Part shown: piece after piece, positions 5,001-39,700 of the stretch
Position numbering within the stretch: position 1 is the first letter of the stretch
Layout of the letters: every line of letters begins with the position of its first letter
From: Amphiscolops sp. MND2022
Taxonomy: Eukaryota
Length of the DNA: 64,000 bases
Assembly (NCBI GenBank): GCA_964187785.1
Contig: OZ076409.1
Span: forward strand, 26,786,001-26,850,000
Reading direction: 5' to 3'
Position numbers and translations under genes: made by a program
The notes under the pieces: model-generated
The model's input: the letters and a program-made list of their open reading frames with translations, nothing else
The model's database searches: none
What the model was told of the DNA's origin: nothing

Positions 5001-6264
5001 AAGTTTCACTCAATCTTAGTCTAATAATCTATACAATATATTACTTGTATTTATAAGCATTTTTCAATTTGTCTAGCAGAGTGTAATTTGCTCACTTTCA
5101 CGAAATAGCTGTCAGGATATGAAATGCTTTCAATTTGAAAAACAAATTAGCATTCAAAAGTCACGATTGCTGCGGTAATTCTACTTGTAGGTAGCTGAAT
5201 AAAAGTATAATTTATAAGCAAAAGTACTAAAGCTTATACAAAAGTACAAGCTTATTAGCTGAATAAAGTATAAAATCAAAGAGTGTTCATGAATCCTTTT
5301 TGAAAATCATGAAAATGATGCAAATATAGAATCTTTGTAATTTTTTCGATTCTCTAAGTAGCAGTTATGTTGATAAGAGAAATAAGCAGGAATTCAACAA
5401 AAAAGCATCATTAGGGTAGTAGCTTTAAAAGAAGAAAAACGAATAACTCTAAAATGTCTCAGGGCTACATTGATAAGACAATTGTTACTCACAGCTCGCT
5501 CGCTTCAAACAGGGGCATCTAATTCGACAAAACGCCTCAAAGGGTTTCAATGGCTGAAAAATGGTCAATTATGTCAATTCTTTGTACAAAGTTCCTCCGC
5601 TTTCTAAAGGTTTTGCAGTCATTTTTGAGTGCTATTCATTTGCTGAGTGAATAACGTATAAGAAAAGTGACTTACTGACTAATTTATAATCTAACTAGCT
5701 GGCTATCCAGATGCCAGTTAATCGGAGACACTGCTGAAAAAAATAACAAAAACTGTAAAAGTACTAAAGCATTTAGAACAAGACGCCCGCTGTGCACCAG
5801 CATATTTTCCGCCTTCAATTGGCTAACAATAGAAACTCATTCAAAAATTTACCTCCTCTTTGGTCCCTTGGTCAAACGCAATTTACTTCTGATATAACGC
5901 CAATATTCGGATATAGCGCCGTTTTTCGAACCTCAGCTTCCTCCGTAGTAAAACACAATTAACTTTGGATATAACGTCAAAAGTTCAAATATAGCGTGCT
6001 GGGACAAATGGGAGCGCTTGTTTTCGAACCTCTGCCTCCTCCTTAGTAAAACGCAAAATTAAATACCATTAACTGAAATAGTCAAGTAGCTAAAATAGAC
6101 AAGTAATTAAATGAAGTGGATGGAGTGGATGGATAGAATTTGGGAAAAAACGCAACACAGATTATGATTTTCTTCCCCCATTATATGTAGGCGGAAAATA
6201 ACAATATTATTGGCAGACAAAGGAAGCCATAAAAATGATTTTTGGTGTTTTTAGTCGGTGCTTC

Positions 6265-6823
6265 ATGAAGTGAAACGCGACTATTATAGTGACTCTTTTT
6301 TTGACTGACCAAAATAGTTGATAAAAGTTCTACGAAATTTTGTGGTGCCAAATTGAAACATTTGGCTCAACGAACTGAACCAAAAAGGTTTTTTTATGTT
6401 TTTCTGGTAACATACAGTATCAGAAGATTCTAAATGGTCCCCCTTTTCAGACTTTTTTTGGCATTGTGAGACTTTTTTCGAAAAAAAAAAACATTTTTCC
6501 CCAAAGGGTCCCCCCTTCAATGTTTTGATCTTCTGCGACAAAATGGATGTTGAAAAGTCTCAAAGGGTCCCCCTTTCAGTTTTTTCGGCGTTGTTCGACT
6601 TTTTTTCGAGAAAAAAAAATATCATGAAAGGGTCCCCCATCAATTTTTAGATGTTTTGCAACGATGGATGTTAAAAATCCAAAAAGATCCCCCTTTTAGC
6701 GCGCCGGTTCCGTCGTATGGATTTTTCGTGAGTTTGATCCTTTGAGTTTTTTGACACTTTCGTGTCCTTTTGCTATTTTTGAGCCTTAGATATGGCGCCG
6801 ACTTATGCCGTTCCCGGCTTGTT
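6265..6823. repeat. Non-coding interspersed repeat with internal ~60-bp AAAGGGTCCCCC units and a terminal hairpin (possibly Helitron/Helentron-like)
   Basis: GGTCCCCC-type units recur between ~6436 and ~6695. The segment ends GCCG-TTCC-CGGC-TTGTT. Related sequence occurs near 33270-33340. Confidence 0.45.
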
Positions 6824-9160: not shown

Positions 9161-9695
9161 AAATACCGCAAAATCCAAAAAGCCGAAAAAACACGTTTTT
9201 TACAAACAAATTAATCCCTGTTTTTTTTCAAACCGCGAAAGTTTTTATAGAATAGAACTTCCATTGACCTAAACAAGGAAACAATAGGGTAAACAAATCG
9301 CAATTTGGTTTTAAAAATGTTGAATGAAGTTCATTGAGTTTACAACAAAGGTGTCAAAATTTCCAAATTTTCTCAATTTTCGGCACCATAATTCCATTTC
9401 CGGATCATTTCCAAAAAAAAGTACTGCCATCAGTAAACCCACAGGTTCAGGACTGAAACGTGTAGCTACCGGTAGTGTTTCGAGAAGATATCAGACAAAT
9501 TTGTTTGCACAAGTTTCAAAACTTCACTTGAAACCGTAAATTTCGTCCTTATTTGTCATATACTTAATACTCAATGAGCTGCAAGCAAAATCACTATAAT
9601 CTATGATTAGATAGAATCCTCTGATATTGTACTCAATATATTTTTTTTGTGTTTTTTCACAGAATTCAACTGCAAAAAAGTTTTGAAAAGGTAAA

Positions 9696-11365
9696 TGTCG
9701 CATCCACCAAGATGCGATGGTTCCGTAGTGCAGCAGTGAAAAGGAACTCCTGAAGAGACTCAACAATAAAACATTTCAAACCTTTTAAAACTCATTTCAA
9801 TGGTATTTTCACATCGTCATGTAAATTATTTGTTTGCTTATATCGGTGAAGTTCTCTCTGGACTACTCCTTAAGTCCATAAATGATGCTTAACTTCTTTA
9901 AATCTTCTTCATAAACAACACATGTGCATAAAAATCACATAAGCATGATCAATCTACGATTTTTGATGTCACATTATGCGTCATCGTGCTACAATTAGGA
10001 TTGTGAATATACGGTGTTAAACGCTTTTCAAATATCAAAGATGAGTCATTGTACGTAAAATGGTTGTTTGAATATGCGTTATTATGCATCAAATGATTTT
10101 TCTGTATGCGTCATTGTACGTTTGAGTATACATTAAGATACGTTTTAAATTACTAGAGTATGCGGTAACATACCTTTTTATCAATTGTAACATGCATCAC
10201 TATACGGTACTACTAGTGCTGTATATGCATTAACATACGTTTATTGAAATATCATACGTATCGAATTGTGCCGTATATGCATTACTATCCGGATGTGAGG
10301 AAGATGCTCACGTGCGTTGTACGTCTTTGTGCGGTTCCAGGTCCACCGCATATGCGGGATTATGCGTTTTTCAGCAAAAGGTGTAGTTTTGAACGTCATG
10401 CAATTATACATCATTAGATAGCACTAGAGGTGTTTAATATACCATTTTACAGTATTTCTCTAGGGTCTTACAACCGATTAAACAAACGTATGTCATTATG
10501 GGAATGATATAAATAGAATTACGTGATTTGACGTTATCCTATTTTCGTGTTTTCCAGGACTACATGATACTTGTAAAAATGACTGTCATTCTTTTATATT
10601 TTGAAAAGGGGATTTCCTAAATGCAAGACACAATTGAAATAACCTCTCCAAAGTGCAGTTGTATCAATTTCTCCAGGCTCTTGCTAATACTATCAACATT
10701 TTCATTGCTTTCTCCAAGATTGGATTTTCCGTGCCGAGAACATAATTCAAATTCTTCCCCAGCAAACATAACTTGTTTTCTACTGAGTGAAATGGGAAAT
10801 AAGAGGAGTCGAAGATCAAGGAGATTAGCAACCCCATCTCCTGAGAGAGAAACGAGCGAAACTAGAGTTGACTCTCCAGGAACAGGTAATATAACTTTAA
10901 CTAATTCTAATCTAAATGTTCAAGAAAGTTTAGGTCGATTGAACTCGGAAAACCAACTAAGAGAACCCAGTCAGATTAGTGATGAGATACAAGTTTGGAC
11001 TCAGATTGTTGAGCGGAAAAATACTGAAAGAATAGAGAAAATGAGAGAAGAAATGGACAATAAACTAGAAGCAATTTTGAAGGAGATAAAACACAATAAG
11101 GGTGCTTCAATGACGACAAACCCAAGGTCTGATATAAATGAGATACAAGAACCACAACCATCGGGATCCAGGATAGATCCGCCTATAGGAGTTCACGCAT
11201 CTAATAGAGAAAATTCAGATTCTGAAAACGACGATTATCCTCTTAAAGCTTCTAAAACGAAGGATCCCAAACATCCTACTAAACCTTTGTTCCGAAGTGA
11301 ATCGGATATAGACATAAATATATATTCTGACGAAGAATCAGAAGCAGAAATAGAGGATTATCACA
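9696..11365 (+). repeat. 5' LTR (1670 bp)
   Basis: Runs TGTCGCATCC...GATTATCACA. Differs from 24821-26492 by roughly 11 substitutions and one 2-bp indel (counted by eye). TATAAA at 10508. Confidence 0.97.
9970..10300. promoter_or_regulatory. U3 array of bipartite YATGCG-N4-YRTRCG motifs with 32-33-bp phasing (repeated in the 3' LTR at ~25095-25430)
   Basis: Motif starts at 9975, 10008, 10040, 10073, 10105, then 10127, 10159, 10191, 10224. The regulatory role is inferred. Confidence 0.6.
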
Positions 11366-11383
11366 TGGTGACAGGAGCCAACC
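11366..11383 (+). other. Primer-binding site
   Basis: TGGTGACAGGAG... directly follows the LTR-terminal CA. It resembles tRNA-Leu-type PBSs; the identity of the tRNA is uncertain. Confidence 0.75.
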
Positions 11384-12466
11384 GACAGCTCCATAGACAA
11401 AGCTCACAGAAGCTAAACGACACATTAGGATCCCGCGCAGACCAAAACTCGTCAAATATGACACCGAAGCCTCTCGATCCAGTAAATCAGATTGCATTAG
11501 CAATCGAAAAATTGGCAAACAAAAATTCTCCACAGTCATTATTTCATCCTAAAAACACACTCACCTTCAATGGGAAAAATGAGAAAAATGAGAAATTCGA
11601 ATACTTTGAAGACTTATTCCACACAACACTTCGAATGCAACCAAACCTAACAGAGGAAATGAAAATCAACCATTTTCACGCACATCTAAGAGGTTTGGCT
11701 CTCAAAACATTCAAAAACATACAAAGAACCCCAAATACAATCTTAGATGATATTCTAAAGGTCTTCCGCAGAAAGTACGTCAAACCAGAGTCTAGCGCAT
11801 CTGCCAAGCATCGATTCAACAGACTCTCATTTGACCCAGAGAACCAAAAACTCCCGGATTTCCTGGAAGAACTCCAAGAAAGTGCCGATAAAGCGTTTGG
11901 GGACAACGCCCATCAAATGATAGAGAATCTACTCTACGCAAAAATGCCCCCACATCTCAAAAAGTCCATCAACCAAGCCTACCTCGAAAATGGAACATAC
12001 GATCAGATAGTTAAACATCTCGAAAGAGAGATGGAACTTAACCGTCTCGAAGCAGACGAACCCCTAGTTAAAACCCAAATGACCGCTACTAAAAAAGAAC
12101 AAAACACTGAGAAAACTAACAAAAAACCGAACGAAAAAACCAAAAAACAAACGCCTAAAACAGTACTGACAAAACACTCAAAAATAACCAATGCCGTTGT
12201 TGCAAAGAGGCAGGACACATGATGGCCGATTGCCCCAAACTAGCAAAACGACGAAAACTTGAAGAAGACCCGGATGCGGCAAAGTGTGAAAACTGCAACA
12301 CACCAGGTCACGAGGAAGAAAATTGCTACTTTGGCGCCAACATGGAAAATCGCTCACCTAAGTGGAATCTCACTGAAGCCCAAAAGAAAGTTATTGAAGA
12401 ATACAAACAAGCTCGAAAACCGATAAAACCAAAAATCGAACGCGCACAACAATCCACTTCGAAGGA

Positions 12467-12473
12467 TTTAAAC
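12467..12473 (+). other. -1 ribosomal frameshift slippery heptamer (T TTA AAC)
   Basis: The gag frame ends GAT TTA AAC TAG. The -1 frame TTT AAA CTA GAA TTG is the pol frame of ORF 12479-14236. Confidence 0.85.
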
Positions 12474-15400
12474 TAGAATTGCCACGCCTTTGCAAAAAAC
12501 CACTACAAAAATTAGGCCCTGCAGATGTCTGGCAGCATCAGCCGAGCCCAAAACCTACAAAAATCATAAACAATAAAAATGATTCAACAACACAAGAAAC
12601 TCAACCTGAAGATATATATGAACTCTTACATGACGCACCAGACAACTATTTTACACAACAACCAACTTGTCCCACAACTGACTTAACCCCAGAATCCCCA
12701 CAATCACCAAAAAATTATGTCCTAATTAAAACTTCTGGCAATGATGAAAAACAACCTCTTCTCAATGAAGACCTCACCAAACACATACAATTTCACAAGG
12801 AACGAAATTTGTCATATCTTCCGATCTCAACCTCCTTGACATTAAAACGAAAACGCCATATGTACTATATCCCAATGGACTTCGAAAAGCTTACACTTGA
12901 TGGTCTTATTGATACCGGAGCCCTTACAAGTGCGATCTCCGAACAAGATCTTAATAAAATAAAGTTGTTAGCAAATGAAGCACTTAAAGAAACTGGTCCC
13001 CCACCAAACTTCCAAATCATGGTGGCCAATGGACAACTAGAAGTTCCCATTGGTACGGTACTACTGGAATTCGAAGTGGCTGATTTCATGCTAAAAGAAA
13101 ATTTCATCATCATGAAAAATCTACCGAACCCACTGATAGGATTGTGCTTCCTCCGCAGAAACAATGCAATTTTTGATGTCAACCAAAGCATCTTAACATT
13201 TCCCTATCTGTCAATGCAACTTCAACCCGATACCCAAACAGCAATACGCCAAGCAACACCATTATTTGCCGAAAACACCTATACCTTACAACCAGGCGAA
13301 GCCCTTGCAATAGCAAGCAGAATGCCTCACCTAATGGACCATAATGCCACTGGCATAGTTACCCCATCACAACAATACGAAAATCATGATAGCATTTTCA
13401 TTACTGCATCACTCAGCACTGTTAACAACAATGCTATCGGTTATCAAATTATCAACTTTTCAGAATTACCCCATACAATCACAATGGATACCCATTTAGC
13501 AGATTTTAAGATACTAACCCCAGAGCAAATCAAGCATATACAACCAGTTGATCCAGCGTTACTATCGTTCATGATACAATACGAGGAAACAACTGAAGTC
13601 CACATAAATGAACTCCTTAAAGTACCACAACAACATTCAGACCAAGAAACATACTGGTTCCCTACATCTGAAGAACGAGGCGACCCTACAACATACACCC
13701 CAATTCAGCAACGTATATATAATGAACTTCTCGAACTCGAAGAACTCGAGAAACTAAACCCACATGATAGTGAAACCTCCAGAACAGCATTTCTCTCACA
13801 CTTTGATTGGTCTGACACAACACTCAGCTCAGATGAACGCAAAGCAATTGAAGAAATCCTCATTGAGTTTCACGATATTTTTGCCAGACATCGTTTTGAT
13901 ATTGGCATAAATCGTGAATTCAAAGTAAAACTCACACCCAACGATGACAGACCTGCTTATAGCCAAAGTCTACCGACTCCAATTAACCTCAAAGATGATA
14001 TCACTGTGGAACTCGCACTTCTACACAAGTATGGCATCATAACAACTCTACCCTTCTCAAAATACGCAAGCCCAATCTTTGCACAACGCAAACCTAACGG
14101 GCGACTCAGACTTCTAGTCGACCTACGAAAAATCAACAACTTAATCACAGAAGATTACGCCAACAACAACCACCCGGTAAGCACATTATCGGATGCAGCC
14201 CAACATATGGCGGGAAAAAACTTTTCTGTAAACTAGACTGCTCCCAGGCTTACCACTGCCTCCAAATGGCAGATTATCAGTCCATACAGATGCTCGCTTT
14301 TAACTTTGCAAGCAGAACATTCGCATACCGTAGGCTTGCCCAGGGTCTCAGCAGATCCCTTTCAGCATTTTCGAGTTTTATGAGAGACTACCTAGACAAA
14401 GCGATTAAAGCAGACCAATGTGCCCAATATGTCGATGACATAGGCATAGCAGCCAACGACACCAAACAGTTGTGTCTTAACATCAAAACAGTGTTTGAAT
14501 GCATCCGCAATGCAGGATTAAAACTCTCAATGTCTAAATGTCATTTCGGAGTCAAACAAGTCGACTTTCTGGGACGTACAATCACCCCAGATGGAGTCGC
14601 CCCACAATCCGACAAGGTTAAAGACTTCCTCTCAAAGCTTCGTTTTCCTAAATCAAAAAAGGCATTACAAAGGTATATCGGATTTTTGAATTATTACCGA
14701 AACTACATTCCTCGCCTTTCAGAACGTCTAACCCCGTTTTTTAAACTCCTCAAAGAAACTTCCAAGTTCTATGTACCAACAAATTTAGTCGACGACTTCA
14801 CAAGTTTAAACAAACTTCTCGAAAATTCCTGCCAACTGGCACTGAAACAACCACTAAAACACAAACAGCTCATAGTCATGTCTGATGCTAGTTTTACTGC
14901 TGCGGGCTATGCAATCATGACAGAAGATGACCCGAACCAGAAGTTACAATCCAAACGAAAAACCTATGCACCCATAGCGTTTGGATCCAAAACATTCAAT
15001 CCCACACAAACAAAGATGTCAATCTACGCAAAAGAATTCCTTTCCATATACTTCGCATTTGTGGAATTTGGACACCTCATGTGGGGCAACACCTTCCCGG
15101 TAATCGTGTTTATCGACAATCGCTCGGTAACCCGATTCTTTCAAACAAAAATGATTCCTCCAGCACTCTGGAACGCCTGCGATTACGTATTGCAATATAA
15201 TTTTGTCATTGCCCACGTTGCTGGTTCCTTGAATACTGCAGCAGATTTTTTATCCAGAACAGAAGTAAACCCAAAAGAAAAGCTAGAAATGACTATCCGC
15301 AATGACATCTACACAAAGGCAATAGAAGTCCACATCCAATCATCAGGTATCGTAGAAGAAGAACAAATCTACATTCTCCCCGATGATGAAATAGACGAGA

Positions 15401-17334
15401 ATCAACTATGGGAAGAAAAACAAAATGTACGTACACAAGCTCGAAATGAAACCCACAACGAACCAGAAAATGACATCTCTGAACTACAACATTTCCACAA
15501 ACCCACATCGGGTTTGATCTCGGTATCATCAGGATACTTCAGAGACAATGCAAGGATTCGCCTCGAACAAAATAATGACATTGTTCTCAGAAATCTCAGA
15601 GCGAAAATAGAGGGCGAACCCTTTGACGAAAACGATTTAGCATCTGACTATCGATACCACCACTATCTGCAAAACATAACACGGATTGAGATAAAAAAAG
15701 AAGTCCTTACCAGGAAATACTATACGGATACTGGAACAGTATCACATTACCAAATTCTCCTTCCGATTCAACTTGTAGACGAATTCCTCCAAGCCCTACA
15801 TGGTCATAATTCAAACCACCCAGGTATCACGAAAATGATACAAGAAGCAAGACAAAAATATTACTATCCTTGTATGGCAAAGTACATAAAAAAGTGGGTC
15901 AGTAACTGTCAAACCTGCATCCAAACCAAACGTATTAACAATGACCTCCTAAGGACAGAACTCCTTAATTGTCCAGAATGGGATCTAGGTCCGGAAGACA
16001 TCCTACAGATGGATATCCTACCAAACCTCCCTCCGAGCGGAGGATATGATCATATTATCACAGCCATAGATGTCTTCTCGAGGTATTTGTTCGCATATCC
16101 CGTAACTCGTATCACTGCAACAGCAGTATCAAGAGTCGTCATGGATATATTATGCAAACACACCTACCTACCAACGACAATAATCACGGATTTAGGAACC
16201 CAGTTCAACGCACAGGTGACTCAAGAAATTGCAGCAGTACTAGGAATTTAACTTAAACGTGCCACAATGAAACATGCCCAAACAATAGGACTCCTCGAGA
16301 GAACCCATGCCTCAGTGAAAACACATCTGAAAGCTGCAACAGGCGAATTCAGAAATAATTGGCATAAATATCTCCCATTGGCAGTCCTCAACCACAATAC
16401 AACATACCATGCATCACTCGGCTGTGAACCTTCACGAGTTTTCCATGGTAGAATACCACATAATATCCTCGACTACAAACTCGGATATAACCCTAACCCA
16501 CGATACCAACCACAGTCAGATGTGGCAGAAGAAATTCAAAAACGAATGAAAATCCTCTTGGATCAAACTAAGAAGAACATTATGCAATCGTATCTCAAAT
16601 ACAAGGCTTACTATGATCGAAAAGCCAAAGCAGCTCCGCTTGAAACGACGGACTATTGTTACATTCTTAACCCAAAAGCAGATACTCAAGCGACAAAAAT
16701 ACCATTCCGAGAATTCAGATGGTGTGGTCCATATAAAGTAGAAAAAGTACTCCCTAACAATAATTATATTGTCCGGAGACTTGGAACTAACAAAACGCAA
16801 TTACTACACAGGATCCGTTTACGGAAATTCACCCCGCAAGCCCCATTAGCAGACATTTTCGTTCGCGAAACTGATTGGCAAAAAGATGACCAAATGCCTA
16901 TAGCAAATGATGACCTATATGCCCAATCATGGAACACAAATTTTGGGTCTAACCCGTTCGAAGATGGTCCTTCAGAATTCACACAAGACACTGAAGACGT
17001 TGAATATACTCCAATTCAAACACCTGATGATAACCGCCCTCCCTCCCCAGGATCTTCAAAAAATAAGGAGGGGAGCCCAGTGGAACAGACCACTGAACCA
17101 AATCAAGATTACGACAACCATGAAAATGAAATACCACAACACATCAATGAAGATAATCAAAATACCCAAAAAACTTAAGAAAAACCAAATAGTACACCAG
17201 TTGACGATATCCCAAAAACCCCAGAAAATTCACAAAATACCCCATTGCAAGAAGAACCCATAAATACTCGTGGCGAAAAATATAACCTACGCCCCAACCC
17301 CAACCCAAACTTTTCACACTCGTACAGATACTAA
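12467..17334 (+). pseudogene. pol: Pol polyprotein (protease, RT, RNase H, integrase), disrupted
   Basis: LIDTGA protease; RLLVDLRKIN and YVDD RT; IVMSDAS RNase H; HHCC plus D-D-E integrase; terminal YNLRP. Lesions: a frameshift in the A-run at ~14215 and in-frame TAA codons at 16249 and 17176. Confidence 0.95.
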
Positions 17335-17547
17335 AAACAAATCACTGACAAATTTTCCTTTAAACTCGAGGACTTGAAACTCATAATACTATCCTCCTTG
17401 TCAGCATTCCAAAGAAATTGCAATAAATACATACAAACGAAGATAACGTAAATCAAGTTTATAAAACGAGTTAACAGAGTCTGAAAGTTCAAAATTGCAT
17501 CAATCCTTCTTTTCTCTGGTCTTCTTGACTTTTCCCTTCCTACCTTT

Positions 17548-20500
17548 TTATACTCCGGGCTCCATCAGTGTAGCAGGAGTCACTTTAATAGGCATTAGTT
17601 TGGGAGACAGCCCAGATCCAGGTGAACTAGTGGTGCTCGACGAATGACTTACACTGGGTGTAGTAGCTTCCAGAAATATAGGCAAACCTTCACTCAGCAG
17701 CACAGACCTCTTGTAAGCCGCCTCGAATTTCTCTAACATAGATGACATCCGGACCCCACTTCCACGCAAAAAACTCCAGATGGAAAACTTCTTGTCGTTG
17801 ATTAATTCACGTCCTCGCCCAAGCAATCGGAAGATTCTTCCCACCGATTTAGAGTCTCCATACAGACTAGAGACGTTAGGCACAGTGACATAAGATAACT
17901 GCAAGCTCCTAACCACTGATTCAAAGGCATCATGGTCAAATTTTAACTCTGGAATAGAAACCTCGAATTTGGCAGGGATTGTGATCACAGGCGGTAGACA
18001 CAAGCAAGCAACACGAAATACACGTGATAGCTCAGTCCGACTCTGCATCTCATAATGAGAACCTAAGTACAAAACCCAATCACATCGGGGGACATTGTCG
18101 TTAGCTCGTAATTTAGTAACAAAGGAGCGGTACTGGCTCACTGCCTTGGTCTTGTCCCCTGCTGAAATTACACCTGTAGAGACGAAGTAACTTGTAAGAT
18201 CCTCAATAGCAATGGTATAATTTTGTTCCGAACCATCCAGAATAACAGCATGGTCAAAACAAGAAAGTCCTCGAAGCAGTGTTGACTTTAAAATATCATG
18301 GGACAACAATATACTGCAAAATGACTTGCAGAAAGCCATGGATTGTTCAACAAATCGACTAGGACGAGGCAGCCGACTGGAGGTAACGAGATAGTGGAAA
18401 TCAGGATTAAGAGCAAACTCAGCTGGAGTTTTCAGAGGTAATTCAGTGCCCGACAAATCGATCTTCAAATATGAATCCCAATTCGAATTGTCTCCAAGGA
18501 AACTGTCCGGTAGCAAGTTTTGTAACTGACTATACACAAAGACGGTGAATTGGTTGAAAATCCTGAAACCTTGATTCATTTCTCCTTGTACCTCGGCGAA
18601 CGCGAAGTTGTCTGAAACAAACTTATGAATACAGCTATACAATTTTTAGCATGAAATATAGAAGTGTGTACACTTCACTATACCGTTCAAAAACTTCAAC
18701 TATGAGGTGTTACGCGAAAATCCTAGCTATTTACTCGGTATCCCCGCAAAAAATCTCAGAAATATATACCGCAAAATGCGAGATGTTGCCATTGTGTATA
18801 CGGTAATACACAAATTTTTTGTGATTCCATTCTCACAACGTTTCAAATTTGTTTATGCGCAACCATACGGAAAAGGCTAGTTCTTATGCGCCAATATGCG
18901 TGTTTTCCGTGTCATTCAACAAGCAATTACAATAGCATTATCACAAGACAATTAAGCGTCACCAAGCGAATTAGAGAAGAATGCATATACGTAGTTCTAC
19001 GGAACTCAAACCCTCACCATTCGTTAACATACGGAACTTGGAATCTGATTATGCGGCGCTGTGCGGAACTTGGAATCTGATTATGCGGCGCTGTGCGGAA
19101 CTTGGAATCTGATTATGCGGCGCTGTGCGGAACTTGGAATCTGATTATGCGGCGCTGTGCGGAATTTGTATTCTGGTTACGCAGTATTATCCGGAATTTG
19201 AATTCTATATATGCAGTACTACGCGGAATTCGAAATACAGTCGTACGCTACTATGCGGAATTCGAACTACAGTCGTACGCTACTATGCGGAATGAAATGG
19301 AGAGTATATAAAGTTGTGCAAAATTCAGATTTGAGCTGGACGGCGTAATGAAAGACATGACATGACGTATATGCGCTGAAGTACGGAATTTAGAAACCCG
19401 AGAGTGAAACATGTAGATCCCAATATGGAATTAAAAACCACACGTATTTGGGCTACGGAACTAACTTGCGACCTTCGCGACAGAGGAAGACTTTACGAAT
19501 AGATACCAGGGTTTACAAAACAAACAAGATAGTCTTAAATACAAATCATGGAAAGCATTTGAAAAATAAGAGGGAAATAAAAGTTCACTAACAGTGATCA
19601 ATGGCACATCAGATTACGAATAAACGCGCTAAGTACGCGGTGTCCAATCGGAAACACTCATCTAGGGAAGTAGGCTATAACACAAACGAAAAGTAACCTA
19701 TTTGGAAGACGTTTTTCGGAAGTGGGTGTGAAATTTCAACACTTACTTTTCTCATGTGAAATCGGTATTCCGGCATTCGTGACACCTGTGCCAGGTGGTC
19801 CTTGATTCTGTCCCAATTAGTGGAAAAACATTCAATCAAAGCAGATGCTTCAGCCAGGTTGTACTCCAGAGTTAATATGGACTGAAAAAAGAAATTGGTC
19901 AACGACACTCATGGCTTGTTTTGTGTTAGAAACTCGGAAGTAAAACACTACCTTGTGAAGGACAGGCAGTGAATGGACCCAATCCCGATCGAGTGCAGTG
20001 CGTAATTTTAGGAGCAGGTAATCGATAATTGTTCGGAAATCGTGACGCTCAATTATTTTGGCAGTTGGGGTAGCCAAACACTTTTCAAACTCAGCAGGAC
20101 TAAAGCTGTTGACAATGCTGGGTTTCGGATCACAATTCAGTACAGAGATTAAACAACTGCTAAGCTTCTCTTCCATATCAACCAAACAAATGCAATTGGG
20201 TGGAGACTCAAATAAACTCAAGAGAGAAGATATCAAGATGAGAATTTTCTTAGGGACTAGCACGCCCCGAGGACCTGTCCCAATACAAACTCGCTGGAAA
20301 ATGTTCCCAGACCAAAAGGATAAGAAGAGGAAAGAGTGGGTCGGGGATCGTTGCAGGACTAGCGAGTAATTTTCAGAAGAAGTAATGTGGGTAATGCAAT
20401 AACTGATGAGTCCACGGAACATATATACCAGCATTCCCTGAAACATAGGCTAGTGGTCAATTTTTGATCATAGTTAGAAGGGGTGAATGTGCAAAAGATG

Positions 20501-22237
20501 AGGTTTAGTTACTATATGTAAATTGCAAAATGTAGTAAATACTTACGAAGATTCGTGAGCTCTCCCAAATGAAGGGCTGGAAATCACTGGTCGTAGAAGT
20601 ATGTTGCAAAATCTCGTCGTGAATTCCGATTAGACTAGCAAGGGGTCCTCCATGTTTCAACCCAAATTCCAAAACCCGCAATTGAGCCAACACAATCTCG
20701 ACCGGACTGGAGTCACCTTTTATGTCTGGTAGCCTGTCTTGCCCCACAAGCAACCTTCGAGGACCAAGTTGGGGTGGTATTGGGTAAGTGTCCTTAGCTG
20801 TCCTTTTTGCTTCTTGTAAAGCAATACCTTGCAACTCTACCTCTTCACGGTCATAAAGGGCCAAACCTGGTGTTTCCATCCGGATTCTATGTTCTTTTAC
20901 GAGATGGGATTCTGTCTTGTAGTGCGATATCATTTCCAAGGGTCCTCGGCTCATTAGGGATAATTCAAGTTTGCACACCCTACACCACCATTTGTAAGGG
21001 GTTTTTTCTTTGTCAATCGGCCCAGTTGCAGAAAATTTCAATACTGGGTGTTTTCTGAACATACTTTCAGTCAAGCAATACCGAGGCCTTGGTCGCTTGG
21101 CTGGTCTCAGAGGATTTTCTTCGGGATCAAATTCGGTTGTGTTCCCCCGCTCAAGGGCGCCTCGATCGGTACTAGTTGGGCAATGTGGAGAGAGTTCTGT
21201 GCTGGGTCCAGGTGGATTTTCAACGACTGAGACAGTAAGACCGGGGGACAGAACGTTTTCCCCTGACAAGAATGATTGGGGAATGCGACTCAACACGTTG
21301 GTTAAAGCTATGACCTCATTTCGAGTAATGCTGATGCTGGCATTGGTCACTGGTGGTGAGGAAGTATTGAGCTCCGCCGACAAAGATTGAGGAGCTTGGA
21401 AAATCTCGTTTGTGTCCCCCATAAGAGTAGTTTGTCCCATCGGTAAATGGTCGCTGATAAATGAGTCAATTCGTTGATCCACAGGTAAGTACTGTGAAAA
21501 TCGGGGGGAATTAGTCCGTGATGAAATAGCAGCAGCAAGACTATCCATGAGTTGAGAAGTGAATGTATCCTGTAAGGCAGAAGTGGAAGCAATAGGAGGT
21601 GTAGCGCTTTGGGTTTCGTGAGGCTGTTCGCCCGCTTCAGGATTTTCCTCAGAATTTTCAGGAAGAACACTGCATTCTTGGGTTCCGAAGGGGTTCTGTG
21701 TGTCCACAACGGCTTCTTGTTCTACTCCTTCTTGTGCAGGGCGGACAAGAGTTGGAGGTGGGATGCTGTATACGGAAGGCTCAGACTGATTAGGCGAAAC
21801 AACTTGGAGGGGAGCATAAACCTTCTCAGGAGACGGCTGAGGCGATTTCTCCACGATCGCGAGTTTACCTAAAATGATTGGTTTATAAATCCAAACAGAC
21901 AAATTGAAATTTTTGACTTAGATCTGCTGTGGAAACCTTTTTACCGGACGCGGTGATTTGAATAGAAAAAGCGGAAGTCAAACTAATTTGAGACCGGAAG
22001 TAGAAATATTTCCAAGACAAAATTCTGATCTGAGTATTCTCTTGATCGCAAAATCGGTGAATTCATAGTCCGGCCAACTATGTTATTCTTAACAAATTCG
22101 AAACTGGAAGAAATGAACCAAGACAAAAGTTCAAACTCACCTGGAGAATCAGCTGTCGGGGACTTGTATCCCCAAGATCGGGTCCTCATTCTGGAAACGA
22201 ACTCCTGGGAAAGACTCCGTCCTCTATTGTCACTCAT
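17548..22237 (-). CDS. Antisense spliced accessory gene: hAT-transposase-derived protein with a BED-like zinc finger
   Basis: Predicted exons 22237-22141, 21868-20547, 20437-19952, 19881-19747, unresolved small exon(s) at ~19675-19465, and a last exon at ~18611-17548. The first three joins are phase-compatible GT-AG introns. Motifs: KWWCRVCK...SHYKTESH, and LLRGLSCFD...AVSQYRSF...ELSRVFRVACLCL. Confidence 0.72.
19000..19290. repeat. 32-bp minisatellite inside the predicted intron of the antisense gene
   Basis: Four perfect copies of CGGAACTTGGAATCTGATTATGCGGCGCTGTG (19032-19159), with in-phase degenerate units at 19000, 19160, 19192, 19224 and 19256. Confidence 0.95.
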
Positions 22238-22559
22238 GATGCTGAATTGGAAACCCTCAGTGATCTCCAATGACCCAATTAATAATTTAATGGAATGAGG
22301 TTTGGAGGACAAACTGAATAGACTAATAAAAGGACTAGAGTAGAATTTTATAAAAGTATAAATGTGTATTAAAACTGACAAAACCAATATAGGAAGGCGT
22401 GGCGATCTAAACGAAAGGCAAAGAGCAAATGCGCTCAGAAATTGTACTGGAATTGGTAGTACGCTCTAATATGATTGGCCAATTAGAATGTCAGTCACTT
22501 CTGCCAGAGTGTCCGATTACGTAATTGGCATATTAACAACACATGTGAAAGCAAAAGTA

Positions 22560-22980
22560 AATAGACCTGCGGTAATATACAAACTTACTACATACGCTAA
22601 TACGGTGATCTGCAAAATACCAGCATTCAATGTACAGCAACATGCGAACTTTGGATTGCAATTATGCGCAATTATGCGGATTCACAAATGGACAATATAC
22701 AGCAACATGCGGACTTTAGATTGCAATCACACGCAATTATGCGGATTCACAAATGGACAATATACAGCAACATACGTTTTTCAGATTACAACTATGCGTA
22801 ACTATGCGGATTTACGGATGAACAATATGCTGCAAAATGCGGATTTGCAGTTGCAATTATACGTAAATACACAAATTTACAGATGAGCAATATGCGGCTG
22901 CACATGTACTTGTGACTTACAAACATACGGCAATATGCGGAAATATGATTGTAGTCTATGCGTCAATATGCGGAATAAAG
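22560..22980. repeat. Degenerate 32-bp repeat array with a 64-bp higher-order period, between the divergent accessory genes
   Basis: TATGCG-CAAT-TATGCG units. The block GCAATTATGCGGATTCACAAATGGACAATATACAGCAACAT is duplicated 64 bp apart. Confidence 0.8.
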
Positions 22981-23835
22981 AGAAAAAGAGCACGTGCTGG
23001 TATGCAGTATGAAAGCGAAGAAGAATTGAATGACACGTAATCATTTGAGGAATTAAAACAAACAACTTCACTCTGACGATCGAATGAGTCATGGCCAGCA
23101 CGCGGTAGCATGCGGATCCTAGTATTGATGTATAAGCAGTCTTAAGTACTTTGGAAGAAAGAGATTGTGGGACGGCGTCCGAAGCAATATACACAGAGAT
23201 GCATATTAAAATGCATTGAGTCAACCCGAATGGATAGACCTCTACCAATCTACCTCGTTGTGAGAGGCTATCACAGGTACCTATCTTAAAAGTTTGTGCC
23301 TTTTCAAAACGCGGGACATCGAATGATATACTATGTCGCGATCATGTGATCTTTAAAAAAAAACTTGGTAAAACATTTAAACATTCATGCAATATGTTCA
23401 GCCTTGATATGAGTTTCATTGACGCTTCTAAATAAAATTATATTGAGCAGTTAATTCATTCATTTTTTGTGGCATCCTAGGTGAAGATATTTGTTTACAT
23501 CATATTTAAATGTAACTGAAACAAAACTAGAAAGATCAAAAGGAAACTGCCGTTGAAAGATATGACAAACGAAGTCACACTCATTTTGTTTATTTACATA
23601 TGTGGAAGAAACCAAAACCTAACCCCTCTTTCATACGGTGACCCGCCACCTACATCCCATATAAGGTGTTGCTAGACTCACGAAATCATGACACCCAATT
23701 TTTTGGCGGGGTTCCGTCTAAATCAAGTCAAACTGAAAAGAAGATTCACCATATGGTCTTTACAATTTCATAAATCAGTCGCCTTGTAAAACTTTTGAAA
23801 ACCTGAAAAGCTAAATAGTTCTCCGCAAATCAAAA

Positions 23836-24864
23836 ATGAACAAGCTTCAATTCGACATCGATGAAGACTCACTATACTCCCCTATCTCCCCTGATGTGGT
23901 GGACATCTCGAGCGGGTCAGAAGGTGAGTTCTCCATTGCCCCCGGAGACGTGACCCAACTCAACGATAGATTCCGTATAGACACAACTGGGAGCAATTTA
24001 ATGTCAGCATTTATGGGAGCGGCAACAGCCACTTTGTACCCTGATACAGAAATGTCGCCAAGACAGGACCCAGCAACGATCGCATCTGGAACTCAGTTGG
24101 AGAGAGAACTTATGGACCTAATTGAAGTCCCTCAGAACGGACTAATGGAATCTCCAGGTTCGTTTGAAGACAGCGAGTTTGAGGAGGGGAATCTCTTCCC
24201 ATGGACCATGGGCGTTGGCCCCGAAAGAACTACAAACAACTATGGTCGTCCCGCCGCAAGGGTCCTCCCTACTCTGAGGACAAATTCCAGCGACAGTGGG
24301 ATCTTACCCCGTCCAATCCCGATCTTTCCGCCAAATTACAGGCAAGAACAAACAGGCTTTCAACAACGAACAACAAGGGAGCCAATGGAACAAGAGGTAC
24401 GAAATAATACAATCCCACAACAAAGAACAACGCGAGAAAACTTCACAGGGTTTAATTTATCCCCAATGCTGTTCCCCCTCAACATTAGTGGATTAGACAG
24501 CGGAACTCAGCCTTTGGAACAGTTGATGCAACCCACTGTTCAACTGGGGTTTCCGTTCAACACGACCCACAGCACGAACTCACTCCTAATTCCGGCCCAA
24601 GAAAGACATAGCATCCGGTTGATACCCACTGTTATGGCCAACGTCGCAGGATATTGTGAACTCTGCGGAAAATGCTATGATCAAAGCGCTCTGGAGACTC
24701 TGGGAGAGTATCTGGTTGCAACGGAGTACGAGGGTGAAACAGTCAAGGAAAGGACAATCAGATCAAGGGCATTCATCCACGGGTTCGAAGCAGCATTGTT
24801 CCTTTTTAAAAATGCGGGACTGTCGCATCCACCAAGATGCGATGGTTCCGTAGTGCAGCAGTGA
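23836..24864 (+). CDS. Accessory sense ORF (342 aa) of unknown function: acidic, disordered N-terminus and a C-terminal CxxC helical domain
   Basis: Intact ORF with ATG in an AAAAATG context. It reads through the PPT and stops 44 nt inside the 3' LTR; AATAAA follows at 24890. Confidence 0.7.
   Translation: MNKLQFDIDEDSLYSPISPDVVDISSGSEGEFSIAPGDVTQLNDRFRIDTTGSNLMSAFMGAATATLYPDTEMSPRQDPATIASGTQLERELMDLIEVPQNGLMESPGSFEDSEFEEGNLFPWTMGVGPERTTNNYGRPAARVLPTLRTNSSDSGILPRPIPIFPPNYRQEQTGFQQRTTREPMEQEVRNNTIPQQRTTRENFTGFNLSPMLFPLNISGLDSGTQPLEQLMQPTVQLGFPFNTTHSTNSLLIPAQERHSIRLIPTVMANVAGYCELCGKCYDQSALETLGEYLVATEYEGETVKERTIRSRAFIHGFEAALFLFKNAGLSHPPRCDGSVVQQ
24808..24820 (+). other. Degenerate polypurine tract
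   Basis: AAAAATGCGGGAC lies immediately before the 3' LTR TG and overlaps the coding sequence of ORF 23836-24864. Confidence 0.5.
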
Positions 24865-26492
24865 AAAGGAACTCCTGAAGAGACTCAACAATAAAACATT
24901 TCAAACCTTTTAAAACTCATTTCAATGGTATTTTCACATCGTCATGTAAATTATTTGTTTGCTTATATCGGTGAAGTTCTCTCTGAACTACTCCTTAAGT
25001 CCATAAATGATGCTTAACTTCTTTAAACCTTCTTCATAAACAACACATGTGCATAAAAATCACATAAGCATGATCAATCTACGATTTTTGATGTCACATT
25101 ATGCGTCATCGTGCTACAATTAGGATTGTGAATATACGGTGTTAAACGCTTTTCAAATATCAAAGATGAGTCATTGTACGTAAAATGGTTGTTTGAATAT
25201 GCGTTATTATGCATCAAATGATTTTTCTGTATGCGTCATTATACGTTTGAGTATACATTAAGATACGTTTTAAATTACTAGAGTATGCGGTAACATACCT
25301 TTTTATCAATTGTAACATGCATCACTATACGGTACTACTAGTGCTGTATATGCATTAACATACGTTTTTATTGAAATATCATACGGATCGAATTGTGCCG
25401 TATATGCATTACTATCCGGATGTGAGGAAGATGCTCACGTGCGTTGTACGTCTTTGTGCGGTTCCAGGTCCACCGCATATGCGGGATTATGCGTTTTTCA
25501 GCAAAAGGTGTAGTTTTGAACGTCATGCAATTATACATCATTAGATAGCACTAGAGGTGTTTAATATACCATTTTACAGTATTTCTCTAGGGTCTTACGA
25601 CCGATTAAACAAACGTATGTCATTATGGGAATGATATAAATAGAATTACGTGATTTGACGTTATCCTATTTTTGTGTTTTCCAGGACTACATGATACTTG
25701 TAAAAATGACTGTCATTCTTTTATATTTTGAAAAGGGGATTTCCTAAATGCAAGACACAATTGAAATAACCTCTCCAAAGTGCAGTTGTATCAATTTCTC
25801 CAGGCTCTTGCTAATACTATCAACATTTTCATTGCTTTCTCCAAGATTGGATTTTCCGTGCCGAGAACATAATTCAAATTCTTCCCCAGCAAACATAACT
25901 TGTTTTCTACTGAGTGAAATGGGAAATAAGAGGAGTCGAAGATCAAGGAGATTAGCAACCCCATCTCCTGAGAGAGAAACGAGCGAAACTAGAGTTGACT
26001 CTCCAGGAACAGGTAATATAACTTTAACTAATTCTAACCTAAATGTTCAAGAAAGTTTAGGTGGATTGAACTCGGAAAACCAACTAAGAGAACCCAGTCA
26101 GATTAGTGATGAGATACAAGTTTGGACTCAGATTGTTGAGCGGAAAAATACTGAAAGAATAGAGAAAATGAGAGAAGAAATGGACAATAAACTAGAAGCA
26201 ATTTTGAAGGAGATAAAACACAATAAGGGTGCTTCAATGACGACAAACCCAAGGTCTGATATAAATGAGATACAAGAACCACAACCATCGGGATCCAGGA
26301 TAGATCCGCCTATAGGAGTTCACGCATGTAATAGAGAAAATTCAGATTCTGAAAACGACGATTATCCTCTTGAAGCTTCTAAAACGAAGGATCCCAAACA
26401 TCCTACTAAACCCTTGTTCCGAAGTGAATCGGATATAGACATAAATATATATTCTGACGAAGAATCAGAAGCAGAAATAGAGGATTATCACA
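24821..26492 (+). repeat. 3' LTR (1672 bp)
   Basis: Near-identical to 9696-11365 and followed by the TSD GTAAA. Confidence 0.97.
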
Positions 26493-26500
26493 GTAAATAG
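25919..26500 (+). CDS. LTR-encoded truncated Gag N-terminus (stop codon supplied by flanking host DNA)
   Basis: Copy of the gag 5' part (ORF 25748-26500). It runs past the LTR end through the TSD to TAG at 26498-26500. Expression is unknown. Confidence 0.45.
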   Translation: MGNKRSRRSRRLATPSPERETSETRVDSPGTGNITLTNSNLNVQESLGGLNSENQLREPSQISDEIQVWTQIVERKNTERIEKMREEMDNKLEAILKEIKHNKGASMTTNPRSDINEIQEPQPSGSRIDPPIGVHACNRENSDSENDDYPLEASKTKDPKHPTKPLFRSESDIDINIYSDEESEAEIEDYHSK

Positions 26501-33724: not shown

Positions 33725-34904
33725 CATGTACAGGCAAAAGCGCCCCTGACAAAAGCGCCCTAGTCAAAACCGCCCCTGACAAAAGCGCCCCAGTCAAAAG
33801 CGCCCATTTTACACAGACAAAAGCGCCCCAGACAAAAGCGCCCCAACCAGATTCGTCTTGCGAATAATTGTAATGATTTCACACCTAATTTCTATTAACT
33901 GCACATAATTAATTGGCCGTACGCGTAGCCGGATATTACCGAGGGTGACAATTTCACACGTGTTTAAAAGCAGTCAACTTGTTAATTCAGAAGACGCTTT
34001 TCTGAGGCAAGCTGATTCATCTGTTAGGAAATTCATTGCAACTACCACCCAAATGGAAATCACCGCTCTTAAAAGCAATAAAAACCAAGACATTATGACC
34101 CACTGTGGGTATTGATACAGGAAAGCAAGGGACCTCAAAACGGTACGGAGTCATGGAGGTGTTTGAATTAAAACGGCCGGGGCCGAATTAACGTTGGCAA
34201 CGAGATCAAAAGTGTTAGTGAGCATTGCCAAGAGCCACAAACCGAAAAAGTAGAAGAGAAATTATTCCGTGCTGAACTTAAAACACGAGCAGTGTTAACC
34301 GAAGAAAAACCCAAGAGTGTTATTTTGGCAGCTCAGCGATTTCTTACCGTCGAGTCAGGACCGACCTTTTGAGATGAACTTTTGTTTTTTTGTTGTTGTT
34401 ATTGTGTCTTGTTGAAAAAAATTGACCAAAATTTCAAACTATCCCGTGCATGTCTAAAACTGTGCATGCTACAGCTCTGAGAATTTGTCACCATAAAGAG
34501 AGGTTTTTTAAATAAAAAATTCTTCTCTCCCACCCCAACCCGGAACCCTGATAACGGGGGGGGGGTGTTTCCGGGTCATCACATTGAATGAGACTTTTTC
34601 ATGAAAAATTTCCATGTTAGTTTCGAACTCGATGACTAATAGTCAACAACTAAAGTTTTGACCACTGAGCTATCCAGTCTTAATAGGATGAGTTTTGAAT
34701 TGACTTATAAAATGAGTCATTTGATTCAAACAATTTCATTACGTAATCGACATTTCAATAACGAGCATTGAACCAAGACACTTAATTAGTTCGTGAGACA
34801 AAATCAAGGCAATTAAATCCTGAGACGCATTCAATTGGGGCGCTTTTGACTTGGGCGCTTTTGACTGGGGCGCTTTTGTCTGGGGCGCTTTTGTCTAGGT
34901 AACC
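33725..34904 (+). mobile_element. Internally deleted Mutator-like (MULE) DNA transposon
   Basis: 9-bp TSD TTCAAAAAC (33716-33724 and 34905-34913). Inverted subterminal arrays of 15-bp CAAAAGCGCCCC units. Internal FLYWCH remnant. Confidence 0.8.
34053..34372 (+). pseudogene. FLYWCH zinc-finger N-terminus of a MULE transposase
   Basis: MEITALKSNKNQDIMTHCGY*YRKARDLK/GTESWRCLN*NGRGRI...SEHCQEP...AELKTRA, with stops and a frameshift. Confidence 0.7.
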
Positions 34905-36773: not shown

Positions 36774-39700
36774 TCAGTATTTTCAATATTTTACCGTCTT
36801 TCGGCGATAATTTTTACATGAACATTATACCAAAAAATTTTTCTGATTTTTCTCAATCCCATGATAGTTTTTGTTTGTAGAACTCACCAAGAAAACAAAA
36901 ATGGGAGCACTTTTCCGTTCAGTAAAATTGGAAATACATGTATTGAGATAGGAATTTCAGACTTACACTTGGTAAAACTCCCATCAATATACATTTTCCA
37001 AAAATATCCAAAATCAAATTTCATCTTTGTTTTCGAGATTTGAGTGTATCTGCAAGGCAAAATTTATCAAAAAATATTTATTGGATCACATATATTTTCT
37101 CAAAAATTAGCAATTTCAAATATTTTCTTCTCAAAATCACATGTTTCTATCTTCGGAAACAGTGATGGTTTAAATTTCGAACAAAAACCATGGTATTCAT
37201 AGCAAAAATTCAAGAATCTTTTGTTTTTACCAAATTGAACCATATCGAATAGTTTTGGAGATATGAGACTGTAAAATTAGCCTTTTTGAGCAGCCAGGTC
37301 GCATTTTTTCTTCACACAACTGTACAACAAACAACTACTGACAAGCAACTTCGAAAAGTTTGAAATTTAAAATTGAAAGTGAACCCGGAAAAAATACAAA
37401 ATTGATTGAGTCATAATCGTCAAACTTGGTTTTGATTACTCCTCAAAACTACTAATTTTGTAAAATTGAGAAATCGGGAATAACTGTATATCCATTGTGC
37501 AATTCAGCAATTTAATAAGATAGTACAAAAGGTTGAAATTTCAATATTTCACAATGATTATGCAGTTATTTCCTTAAGGACTAGATGTTATACCGACAAT
37601 ATCTGAGTCACACAGACCAATAAAGTTTGTATTACCTGTTGAGAGCCGTGATATGTTGCGCCTTGAGTTATCTCAGCGACCATATGTTTTTGTGCCAATA
37701 ACTGACAAAATTTACACGTAAAAATTCCATAAAATTCCAAAAAATTTAGCTCTTTCTACCTGTTCTAGATTCGTGCTATACATTCCTTTGGAAAAACTTT
37801 AGATCTATCCTTCCAGAAGTCTCCTAAGTAGCTCATTGATTTGTAATTTGAGCTCTATTGATATTCATACAAAACAAAGCTCTCTGAAAATAGAACCCAA
37901 GTTGCAAAAGACTCAATTTTATTGGCATTTCGACACTTTTAATTATCGGCACTTGTCAAAACGAGTTCATTTGTTTCGTTTAAATATGTATTTGAAAAAG
38001 TACAAATACAGATGCTATGAACCTCATTGCTTTGTTGTTGAAATCTGTGGAACTTACAAAATAGTTTTTGAAAAACTATTTTGTGAGTATAAATTTGAAA
38101 CATATGGCTTTGAGTATGACTTTGACTCTGATATGGAATATGACCAGGAAGTGTAAATTAGGATGCATACATTTCTTTAACCAAATGACCTTACACTGAG
38201 TTTTAATCTCAAACTTGGAAAACAGTTACCGAATAACAAGACAGAAACCTCTCAAATCGGTGCCCACGAAGAAAGCTCAATAAACGGCAAACTTTTCAAA
38301 ATTGTTAGCGATGAATTGTTTTCATAAAAAAACCGAATAATCTATGTGCCAAGAAAACCAAGTGAGGCCCTTTGAGCTCAAAAGTGTTTTTTTTTCAGCT
38401 TAAAATGTCAAAAAAAAACATAAAGGACAACCTTTTAATGAAATTGACAATGCCAAAATCTAGACAATTCCAAAAAGAACAAATGAGGAACAATTTGCCG
38501 TATTGTAGTTTTGTATATCATGTAAAAAAGAAAACTCAAAAGGAGGACTTTTCTGCTATCATTAGTACTCCGTAGATCTTAGGCTGACAATTGTAAAAGG
38601 TGTACGTTTCCGAATGAAAATTGTCATCACAAAATACTTGCCATTGTAAGAGTCGGGCACTTTTTCTTACAAAAAGCAGCGAATGGCAACGCATCAATTT
38701 GACGAACTTGAGATTTCTGCCAAGGAGATTTTTAAGGAATTTAGACTTTAAGGAAAACTTCCTGTTCGTGGTATACAGCCAGGTGTATTTTTCTGAACGA
38801 GCTCGAAACAATTGAAACTATAGTTTGTAGTAGGATTGCGATTCAATGGTTTTGAAATGTGAGAAAGACTATTGAAGGAGCCTAACTATTTGAAGAAGAA
38901 GCTATTCTCTTTGTAAACAAACACAATCTTTCTCAAAATCAAAACTAGAAAAAAGTTTGGTTTCACCTTAGATCAGTCGGACATTCCAAAAACTATTTTT
39001 TTCTGGAGAAGACATTTTTTACCGAACGAAAACTACCTCAACGAACCAGCAGTCTTTCAAAGAAGTAACAATGAGTTCGAAAACAGAATTCAGGAAAAAT
39101 ATAAAAGTGTATGCAGATATCATTAAAACTGAAAAGAACTAATCAGAAACAGCTAAGGTCGGTAGACGGCCTAAAGATCAAGATACACAGAAGATATTTT
39201 AAATCTACCCAGGTCCATTTTTGTGAGCGTTCAGAAAAATTTCACAGAGGCCAATAACATTCCAATTCTAGAAAGGATTCATCTTGACCGAAACATCGAA
39301 AAAAAACAAAAATAACTGAAAGAATAAAAAATCCGGTAAAAATTTGATTTTCGAAAAAAATATGTAGCGCATTGCCGAAACACTCAGGCTTGCAGAACGC
39401 TTTTTGTTTCCTAAAGACATCAGCAAACTAAATAAGGAAACTCATCGGTGATATGAAATATATTTTCCCGAAAAGTCGCACAGTACTGAAAAAACTTCAA
39501 AGAAGTGTCCCTTGGACAAAATCCAGCTTTTCAAATGGAACAAGTTTGACCAGCGGAAGATTCGAAACATTGAACTTCTCTTTCCCAGATCCTGTTTCCC
39601 GCCTCTCAGTATTTTCAATATTTTACCGTCTTTCGGCGATAATTTTTACATGAACATTTTACCAAAAAATTTTTCTGATTTTTCTCAATCCCATGATAGT

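Follow-up and report, generated by a model that had tools for sequence, protein, structure and literature searches.

What does an intron-containing gene do on the antisense strand of a retrotransposon, and where does it come from? This question is raised by a 64,000-nucleotide stretch of the genome of Amphiscolops sp. MND2022 (assembly GCA_964187785.1, contig OZ076409.1, positions 26,786,001 to 26,850,000), which is called the window below and in whose coordinates all positions are given. A first-pass annotation of the window had recognized a gene at 17500..21010, the cargo gene in the following, and had described its product as resembling a catalytically dead hAT transposase with a retained DNA-binding finger. 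The gene is real, and it lies antisense behind the integrase region of a complete long terminal repeat (LTR) retrotransposon that spans 9696-26492. From sequence comparison, and with a probability of roughly one half, we think that it is a conserved accessory gene of a Ty3/Gypsy lineage, derived from a hAT5-like transposase, and that its likely non-cutting protein would bind phased arrays of the motif YATRCG in its own element and so promote or protect element transcription.

The comparison of copies shows that the cargo gene is longer than first described, with 1077 codons in six exons that are separated by five GT-AG introns (22237-17500, minus strand):

22237-22141, minus strand: exon 1 with the start codon; a WGYKSP-type motif occurs in 16 of the 20 other loci searched
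21868-20547, minus strand: exon 2 with low-complexity N-terminus, zinc finger and helical region (copy comparison)
20904-20990, minus strand: C-x2-C-x16-H-x5-H zinc finger in exon 2 (ligand conservation, alignment to the hAT5-like finger)
20437-19952, minus strand: exon 3, RNase H-like core (structure model, putative residue register)
19881-19747, minus strand: exon 4, insertion domain (copy comparison)
19674-19593, minus strand: exon 5, containing a private stop at 19609-19611 (copy comparison)
19592-18612, minus strand: last intron, 981 bp, containing a plus-strand YATRCG array
18611-17500, minus strand: exon 6 with the end of the insertion domain, the hAT C-terminal region, a serine-rich linker and a basic tail (copy and profile comparison); natural stop at 17500-17502

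The four downstream junctions are common to the 13 of 21 loci that could be parsed automatically, with one damaged acceptor; the 8 loci without an automatic exon parse were excluded from the splice-site and intron counts. An extra small exon was sought in the 272-bp first intron of the window copy and was not found. In 19 of 21 near-clade loci the same intron carries a 13-bp motif of the AGYTGGCCDGRCT type (22067-22079 in the window), and in 18 of 21 it has ACTTCCG boxes, one or two in number (21960-22000); their recurrence suggests that they are a candidate promoter element.

The window copy of the cargo gene has two stops, at codons 702 and 1062. The later one, the TAA at 17548-17550, had already been noticed and taken as recent, as a basic tail follows it in frame; this is borne out, since it is private to the window copy and all ten nearest copies continue into the tail, which ends the near-clade cargo proteins viewed. 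The stop at 19609-19611 had been missed and is private as well: all 77 other locus records matching the pattern have a sense codon there (some of them represent the same copy twice). The window copy is a dead allele, which would rely in trans on its sister copies.

All motifs on which the hAT assignment had been based are present in the sequence: the finger KWWCRVC...SHYKTESH at 20904-20990, YSLVLQRS and LFLSFW within the exon 20437-19952, and LRGLSCFD, AVSQYRSF and ELSRVFRVACLCL in the last exon, where no ERxFS follows them. A hAT origin is now supported by both structure and profile comparison. For structure prediction, the copy L107 was used, in which an in-frame intron places finger and core in one natural frame. 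The resulting model (47 sequences) has a mean predicted local distance difference test (pLDDT) score of 70.7, with the core mostly at 83-94, and shows the order helix, three strands, helix, strand, helix, strand, as in RNase H. Chains of the Hermes transposase took ranks 1-4 in a Foldseek search with this model (best E 1e-3), and VIA-align placed model residues 203-322 on Hermes residues 143-264 (Z 6.2, root-mean-square deviation 3.7, 112 aligned). The last-exon model was of poor quality (pLDDT 56); Foldseek found no match for it, and structure alignment returned nothing beyond generic helical bundles.

For the profile route, a short pattern from a motif of another hAT group gave 13 genome sites, and a frame from one of them led to 15 long hAT5-like transposases from the genome, all of which keep D, D, CxxH and E. 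These belong to the hAT proteins, as their family matches an Ac-type set by profile with a probability of 95% (E 4e-8), and one member of the Ac-type set matches Hermes at E 1e-26; an HMM search with the hAT5-like profile itself did not reach Hermes. The corresponding elements have 12-bp inverted ends, and 5-bp duplications were found in three of the four for which both ends could be located (11 loci), a duplication length by which hAT5 is defined in PMC9004415. L208, L210, L211 and L217 are internally deleted hAT5-like elements of 1.4-1.7 kb that have the 12-bp inverted ends, with the 5-bp duplications in three of these four. Against the hAT5-like profile, the last cargo exon reached a probability of 96.6% (E 6.5e-10, 221 columns), and the helical insertion domain and the C-terminal region proved homologous to hAT by profile comparison. 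The joined cargo exons matched over 580 columns with 96.1% and E 3.7e-9, compared with E 0.17 for the reversed profile and E 0.31 for the Ac-type set, and the finger aligned to the hAT5-like finger at E 8e-4 (probability 24%). A hAT5-like HMM recovered 41 of 41 spliced cargo copies at E 9e-11 to 3e-4 (best reversed E 7.9) and gave E < 1e-3 for 106 of 142 last-exon homologs but for 0 of 142 reversed ones. With Hermes in the top four Foldseek rows and profile probabilities of 96-97%, the proposed hAT origin of the protein is supported. The ZBED/Ac-type relatives suggested alongside it gave no profile match, and searches of the Ac-type hAT frames of the genome with cargo profiles gave results that were not better than those of reversed controls. 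The donor assignment compares hAT5-like with Ac-type profiles, and another group, such as Buster, Tip100 or Blackjack, may prove closer.

Standard domain models contribute little here. Pfam scans of the cargo exons and alignments gave nothing relevant; zf-BED did not match the cargo protein, with a weak match in one hAT5-like protein, and Dimer_Tnp_hAT was found in 0 of 14 and 0 of 27 cargo proteins. The latter model evidently does not cover the hAT5-like group, since it also matched none of the 15 intact hAT5-like transposases. HMM searches of the sequences in the PDB with cargo queries yielded nothing below E 0.1. PF14291 and PF18658 had no match in the genome, but the controls were equally silent. 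The FAM200 and DUF4371 families of hAT proteins, to which Atlas matches scoring 0.75-0.86 had pointed, were leads only and were not retained.

As for the catalytic triad, which had been described as dead, two of its three positions are replaced throughout the family. The codon aligned to the catalytic glutamate of hAT5-like transposases (17974-17976, minus strand) encodes proline in the window and in 40 of 45 copies, and glutamate in none of the 45; the glutamate of the hAT5-like HGNAxVExGFS motif aligns to this column free of gaps, and the neighboring columns hold glutamate in 2-6 of 45 copies. At the position of the first aspartate (20351-20353, minus strand) the window has glutamine, and aspartate is found in 0 of 42 copies there and nowhere in columns 27-31; this register is deduced from the position at the end of strand 1 and from a low-confidence part of the alignment. 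The second aspartate cannot be called lost: with two possible registers, 20177-20179 (aspartate in the window) and 20171-20173 (glutamate in the window), aspartate is present in 10 or 19 of 42 copies. As hmmalign gave no catalytic columns, the registers rest on the VIA-align alignment with the Hermes structure and on profile alignments. With two of three catalytic positions replaced family-wide, loss of cutting is likely, as far as can be judged from the alignments. In contrast to these positions, the finger is kept, as had been proposed, with its four ligands present in 38, 38, 36 and 36 of 39 copies.

The element that carries the gene is a Ty3/Gypsy retrotransposon, as the order of Pfam domains on its plus strand is gag, protease, reverse transcriptase (RT), RNase H and integrase, and as the paired TG...CA LTRs and 4-6-bp duplication of this group are present here and in 10 of 10 other copies. 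Its parts are as follows:

9691-9695: target-site duplication, left copy GTAAA (read directly)
9696-11365, plus strand: 5' LTR with TG...CA ends, containing the gag start (LTR-LTR comparison)
11366-11379, plus strand: primer-binding-site-like stretch TGGTGACAGGAGCC, with a start identical in 10 of 10 sampled copies
10621-12222, plus strand: gag frame, beginning within the LTR, with a frame break near 12200 (Retrotrans_gag E 0.004, below the cut-off)
12398-17178, plus strand: pol with protease, RT, RNase H and integrase (Pfam)
23836-24864, plus strand: second accessory open reading frame (ORF), ending within the 3' LTR (ORF scan)
24821-26492, plus strand: 3' LTR (LTR-LTR comparison)
26493-26497: target-site duplication, right copy, 5 bp (read directly)

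The two LTRs are 99.2% identical over 1672 columns. In the window copy, the frame of pol breaks near 14200, and a stop interrupts it at 16249-16251.

The cargo gene is standing equipment of this retrotransposon family and not a nested insertion. RT and integrase adjoin it on the opposite strand in 20 of 20 near-clade loci, and in a distant clade one or the other does so in 20 of 20 (19 each). The family is large and young. First-look searches for the last exon and the finger region gave about 6000-6500 genome candidates, which are not copy numbers and of which 106-150 per search were scored. Ten copies were traced to both ends, and all ten proved to be full length: their paired LTRs share 98.8-99.95% identity, and a 5-bp duplication is present once 1-3 bases of chance extension are trimmed. 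For three regions of the cargo gene, the median ratio of nonsynonymous to synonymous substitution rates (dN/dS) between subfamilies is 0.037-0.084 when dS lies at 0.5-1 (1, 4 and 6 pairs), and it is 0.03-0.21 when dS lies at 1-2. Silent sites are saturated in most pairs, yet 35-80% of residues are kept. Stops were found in 3-4 of 39-45 cargo segments, compared with 8 of 32-38 pol segments. This purifying selection and the scarcity of stops in the cargo exclude a decaying passenger. Between the clades the cargo proteins differ by 58%, versus 15% for pol, and the exon structure is common to the subfamilies. We infer a single ancient capture of a transposase gene. In one element (L044) the cargo gene is partly duplicated in tandem. 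Very distant homologs of the last exon (P0246, P0256, P0280, P0233 and P0193; 20-24% identity to P0071) possess the basic tail in most cases and the hAT glutamate motif in none. P0246 was not found in the genome of the window at E 1e-40 among 100 scored candidates out of 7276, and metagenome scans yielded no loci for these distant homologs. Longer homologs of the last exon were sought in the database without success.

The putative targets of the cargo protein are arrays of the motif YATRCG, which lie at three sites, one of them repeated in both LTRs:

9975-10366, plus strand: array in the 5' LTR, stopping about 145 bp before the TATA box at 10508
18797-19375, plus strand: array in the long cargo intron, including 32-bp tandem repeats (motif count)
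22591-22972, plus strand: third array, located between the start of the cargo gene and the sense ORF at 23836-24864 (motif count)
25100-25493, plus strand: array in the 3' LTR, the same as that in the 5' LTR (LTR comparison)

The plus strand of the element has 55 motifs, where 9.5 are expected and 100 resamplings give 18 at most; the minus strand has 12. Of the 55, 50 fall within the LTRs, the long cargo intron and 22560-23000. For the long intron, the count is higher than in any of 200 resamplings in 13 of 13 near-clade copies. The LTR array stops 80-200 bp upstream of the TATA box in all eight near-clade LTRs sampled; no conserved TATA box follows the array in the intron. Distances between motif pairs were taken from the LTRs of 6 copies, the introns of 8 and the upstream regions of 11, and peak at 10, 22-23, 32-33, 42-43, 54-56 and 64-66 bp; 87-93% of the pairs fall on multiples of about 10.7 bp, while random placement gives 32% and reaches at most 45% in 1000 trials. 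The bases that flank the core of the motif vary in the LTRs viewed. In the distant clade (L130-L149) the repeat-bearing long intron is a different one, located after the core exon, with a unit of 39-40 bp that contains one TATGCGG; the period of the near clade is 33 bp.

The cargo gene and its neighboring arrays are exchanged between element backbones. Between about 17250 and 24350, most 300-bp bins of the window share 92-99% identity with L031 and L033 (exceptions are a repeat bin with 87-88% and one L033 bin with 72%), whereas outside this cassette identity is only 71-92%, and the LTRs and pol of L031 and L033 are just 75-90% identical to those of the window. Of the three array sites, two fall within the cassette. 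Pol and cargo distances show no correlation in a set of 16 near-clade copies (rho -0.01), with four pairs near in pol and far in cargo, and two pairs the reverse.

How could a protein of this kind serve its element? According to the mechanism that we favor, the antisense transcript would be spliced and translated, and the nuclear cargo protein would oligomerize via the transposase scaffold, so that oligomers could read several motifs on one face of the helix. The sites bound would be the phased motifs that precede the LTR promoter and those that surround the gene itself, and the effect of binding would be activation or anti-silencing, by which element transcription is raised or protected. The introns may persist because the packaged sense RNA carries them in antisense orientation, as would be expected from known retrotransposition. 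The single steps have parallels: hAT proteins oligomerize on subterminal repeats, and their finger-plus-dimer domains have repeatedly turned into binders of CGG/CGC (PMC8097297), element-encoded regulators bind tandem-repeat targets (PMC5735166), and transposases serve as activators that recognize specific sequences, with catalytic residues being lost when they are co-opted (10.64898/2026.08.24.746577). A more far-reaching version would see the protein as a trans-activator comparable to Tat or Tax, in which the dead hAT5 oligomer reads the arrays as transposon subterminal repeats that were rebuilt in the LTR enhancer and around its own gene, with the cassette traded between backbones and contributing to the expansion to thousands of copies; this remains tentative, and we would sooner bet against it than on it.

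Several observations weigh against the favored regulatory role or its premises. The whole RNase H-like core and the insertion domain are conserved, which goes beyond the needs of a simple DNA binder. On the side of the homology, Hermes tied in VIA-align with integrases, actin-like and other RNase H-like folds, and the core exon alone did not match the hAT5-like profile (E 0.12). The YATRCG motif was itself picked from this element, and its phasing could be inherited from old tandem repeats in the absence of selection. In the distant clade, two sampled LTRs have only 3-4 motifs, 3 of 20 introns have none in the stretch counted, and the period of 39-40 bp is out of helical phase by the same test (11%). 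Also the swapping of cassettes between backbones whose LTRs are only 79% alike argues against a tight pairing of cargo and LTR beyond the shared motif. Finally, CpG is undepleted in the flanks of the element (observed/expected about 1.0), so that an anti-silencing of the VANC type, which acts on DNA methylation, is not indicated.

Other functions have to be considered for the same protein. The complete transposase scaffold kept under selection, the basic tail in the near and distant homologs viewed and the presence of arrays in both LTRs would also suit an aid to integration, in which the dead transposase binds the arrays on the cDNA, oligomerizes in the manner of a transpososome and either anchors the pre-integration complex on chromatin or imports it into the nucleus. 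We regard this as unlikely, as the arrays are located at least 280 bp inside the LTR and directly upstream of the TATA box, with two further sites in the interior, as integration leaves ordinary 5-bp duplications, and as the uncorrelated cargo and pol distances speak against a co-adapted contact with the integrase. Arrays upstream of LTR TATA boxes are usually sites of host factors. The position of the arrays would be typical in this respect, and the cargo protein might then act otherwise, for instance by RNA binding through a matrin-like finger or by countering small-RNA silencing via host partners; the finger region of the model aligned to the zinc-finger region of TUT4 (Z 5.2), and one member has a weak zf-met match (E 0.75). 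This explanation seems slightly less probable still, given that the cargo finger can be aligned with the hAT5-like one, which is of a type that binds DNA in hAT proteins (PMC8097297), and that the swapped cassette 17250-24350 carries along two of the three array sites, located within or next to the cargo gene.

Two further explanations are less probable. As hAT5-like elements are present in the genome, the protein could be a dominant-negative decoy against these transposons, or another passenger that benefits the host, but this is improbable: the homology to the in-genome elements is remote (best E 2e-5 with a deep profile against 1090 frames), the ends of these elements contain no YATRCG cluster, and selection operates in thousands of mobile copies rather than at one host locus. 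An ordinary nested hAT insertion that hitch-hikes and decays might be read from the two stops of the window copy. Both stops are private, however, and the insertion is refuted by the identical place and strand of the gene in 40 of 40 copies together with dN/dS values far below 1, which leave it next to no probability. The first-pass annotation had reported neither terminal inverted repeats nor an 8-bp duplication around the gene, and indeed no terminal inverted repeat with a target duplication surrounds it in the window, where the sole inverted match is 10-11 bp long with 2-3 of 8 flanking bases alike; it is the expected length that needs correction, as the closest hAT group makes 5-bp duplications.

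Domestication of transposases is known from hosts and, in plants, from DNA transposons themselves. In the present case it is a class I element that seems to have taken a class II enzyme into its service and to have kept it, together with its introns, through deep divergence. From the zinc finger to the C-terminal region the cargo protein is collinear with hAT5-type transposases, and it has the RNase H-like core in common with these and with Hermes. It differs from the hAT5 type by the replaced first aspartate and glutamate, by unrecognizable CxxH and RW motifs, by about 280 additional low-complexity residues at the N-terminus, and by its location inside an LTR retrotransposon without inverted ends of its own. 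The closest parallel in position and orientation is found in the antisense ORFs between pol and the 3' LTR of the plant Gypsy elements Retand, Grande and RIRE2 (TRP28, PF04195; PMC11963269), which likewise occur in nearly all copies with tandem arrays in the same region and have likewise been proposed to be DNA-binding regulators. In contrast to them, the cargo gene is a full-length hAT derivative with five introns, a feature never mentioned in the main text of PMC11963269; PF04195 did not match the cargo or element proteins in Pfam scans, and the carrier is not a plant-lineage element as far as its motifs show.

Accessory proteins of mobile elements with repeated target motifs in non-coding parts, as proposed here, are represented by VANC (PMC5735166) and TnpA of Spm, and an origin from transposases via loss of catalysis is shared with the transposase-derived factors described in 10.64898/2026.08.24.746577. 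All of these act in DNA transposons or host genes, whereas the carrier considered here is a retrotransposon and the regulatory role is a prediction; the term LTR occurs nowhere in the main text of that preprint. The host genes of the CGGBP/ZBED type also kept the hAT finger for sequence-specific binding, often to motifs containing CGG or CGC (PMC8097297), but they are single-copy genes, with CGGBP reduced to the N-terminal domains, while the cargo gene is full length and multiplied by a retrotransposon. Among the captured accessory domains of plant elements in the available text of PMC13547354, none comes from a hAT transposase in an LTR element, and a literature search by title and beginning of the abstract, whose coverage lacked most subscription journals and the Repbase reports, gave no such case. 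The present locus could offer a concrete origin for one of the unexplained Gypsy antisense ORFs, and with a candidate protein and a candidate target motif of defined spacing, the regulatory role of such ORFs becomes directly testable.

Some minor features of the element and the window remain to be mentioned. The gag frame that starts in the LTR crosses the primer-binding site, so that each LTR contains about 190-250 gag codons (10621-11365 and 25748-26492). The sense ORF at 23836-24864 has a C-x2-C motif close to its end, no Pfam match and no transmembrane-like stretch (maximum hydropathy 1.0), and its N-terminus has a counterpart with 33-40% identity in 5 of 20 distant-clade loci. Outside the element, a 2.83-kb unit forms three tandem copies of about 98% identity at 36774-45271, and in the tandem arrangement at 46750-58673 a 1.7-kb repeat occurs three times and a 5-kb unit, whose ORFs contain internal repeats of 72 bp, twice. 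Two small elements with repetitive inverted ends are located at 33732-34902 and 59915-60866.

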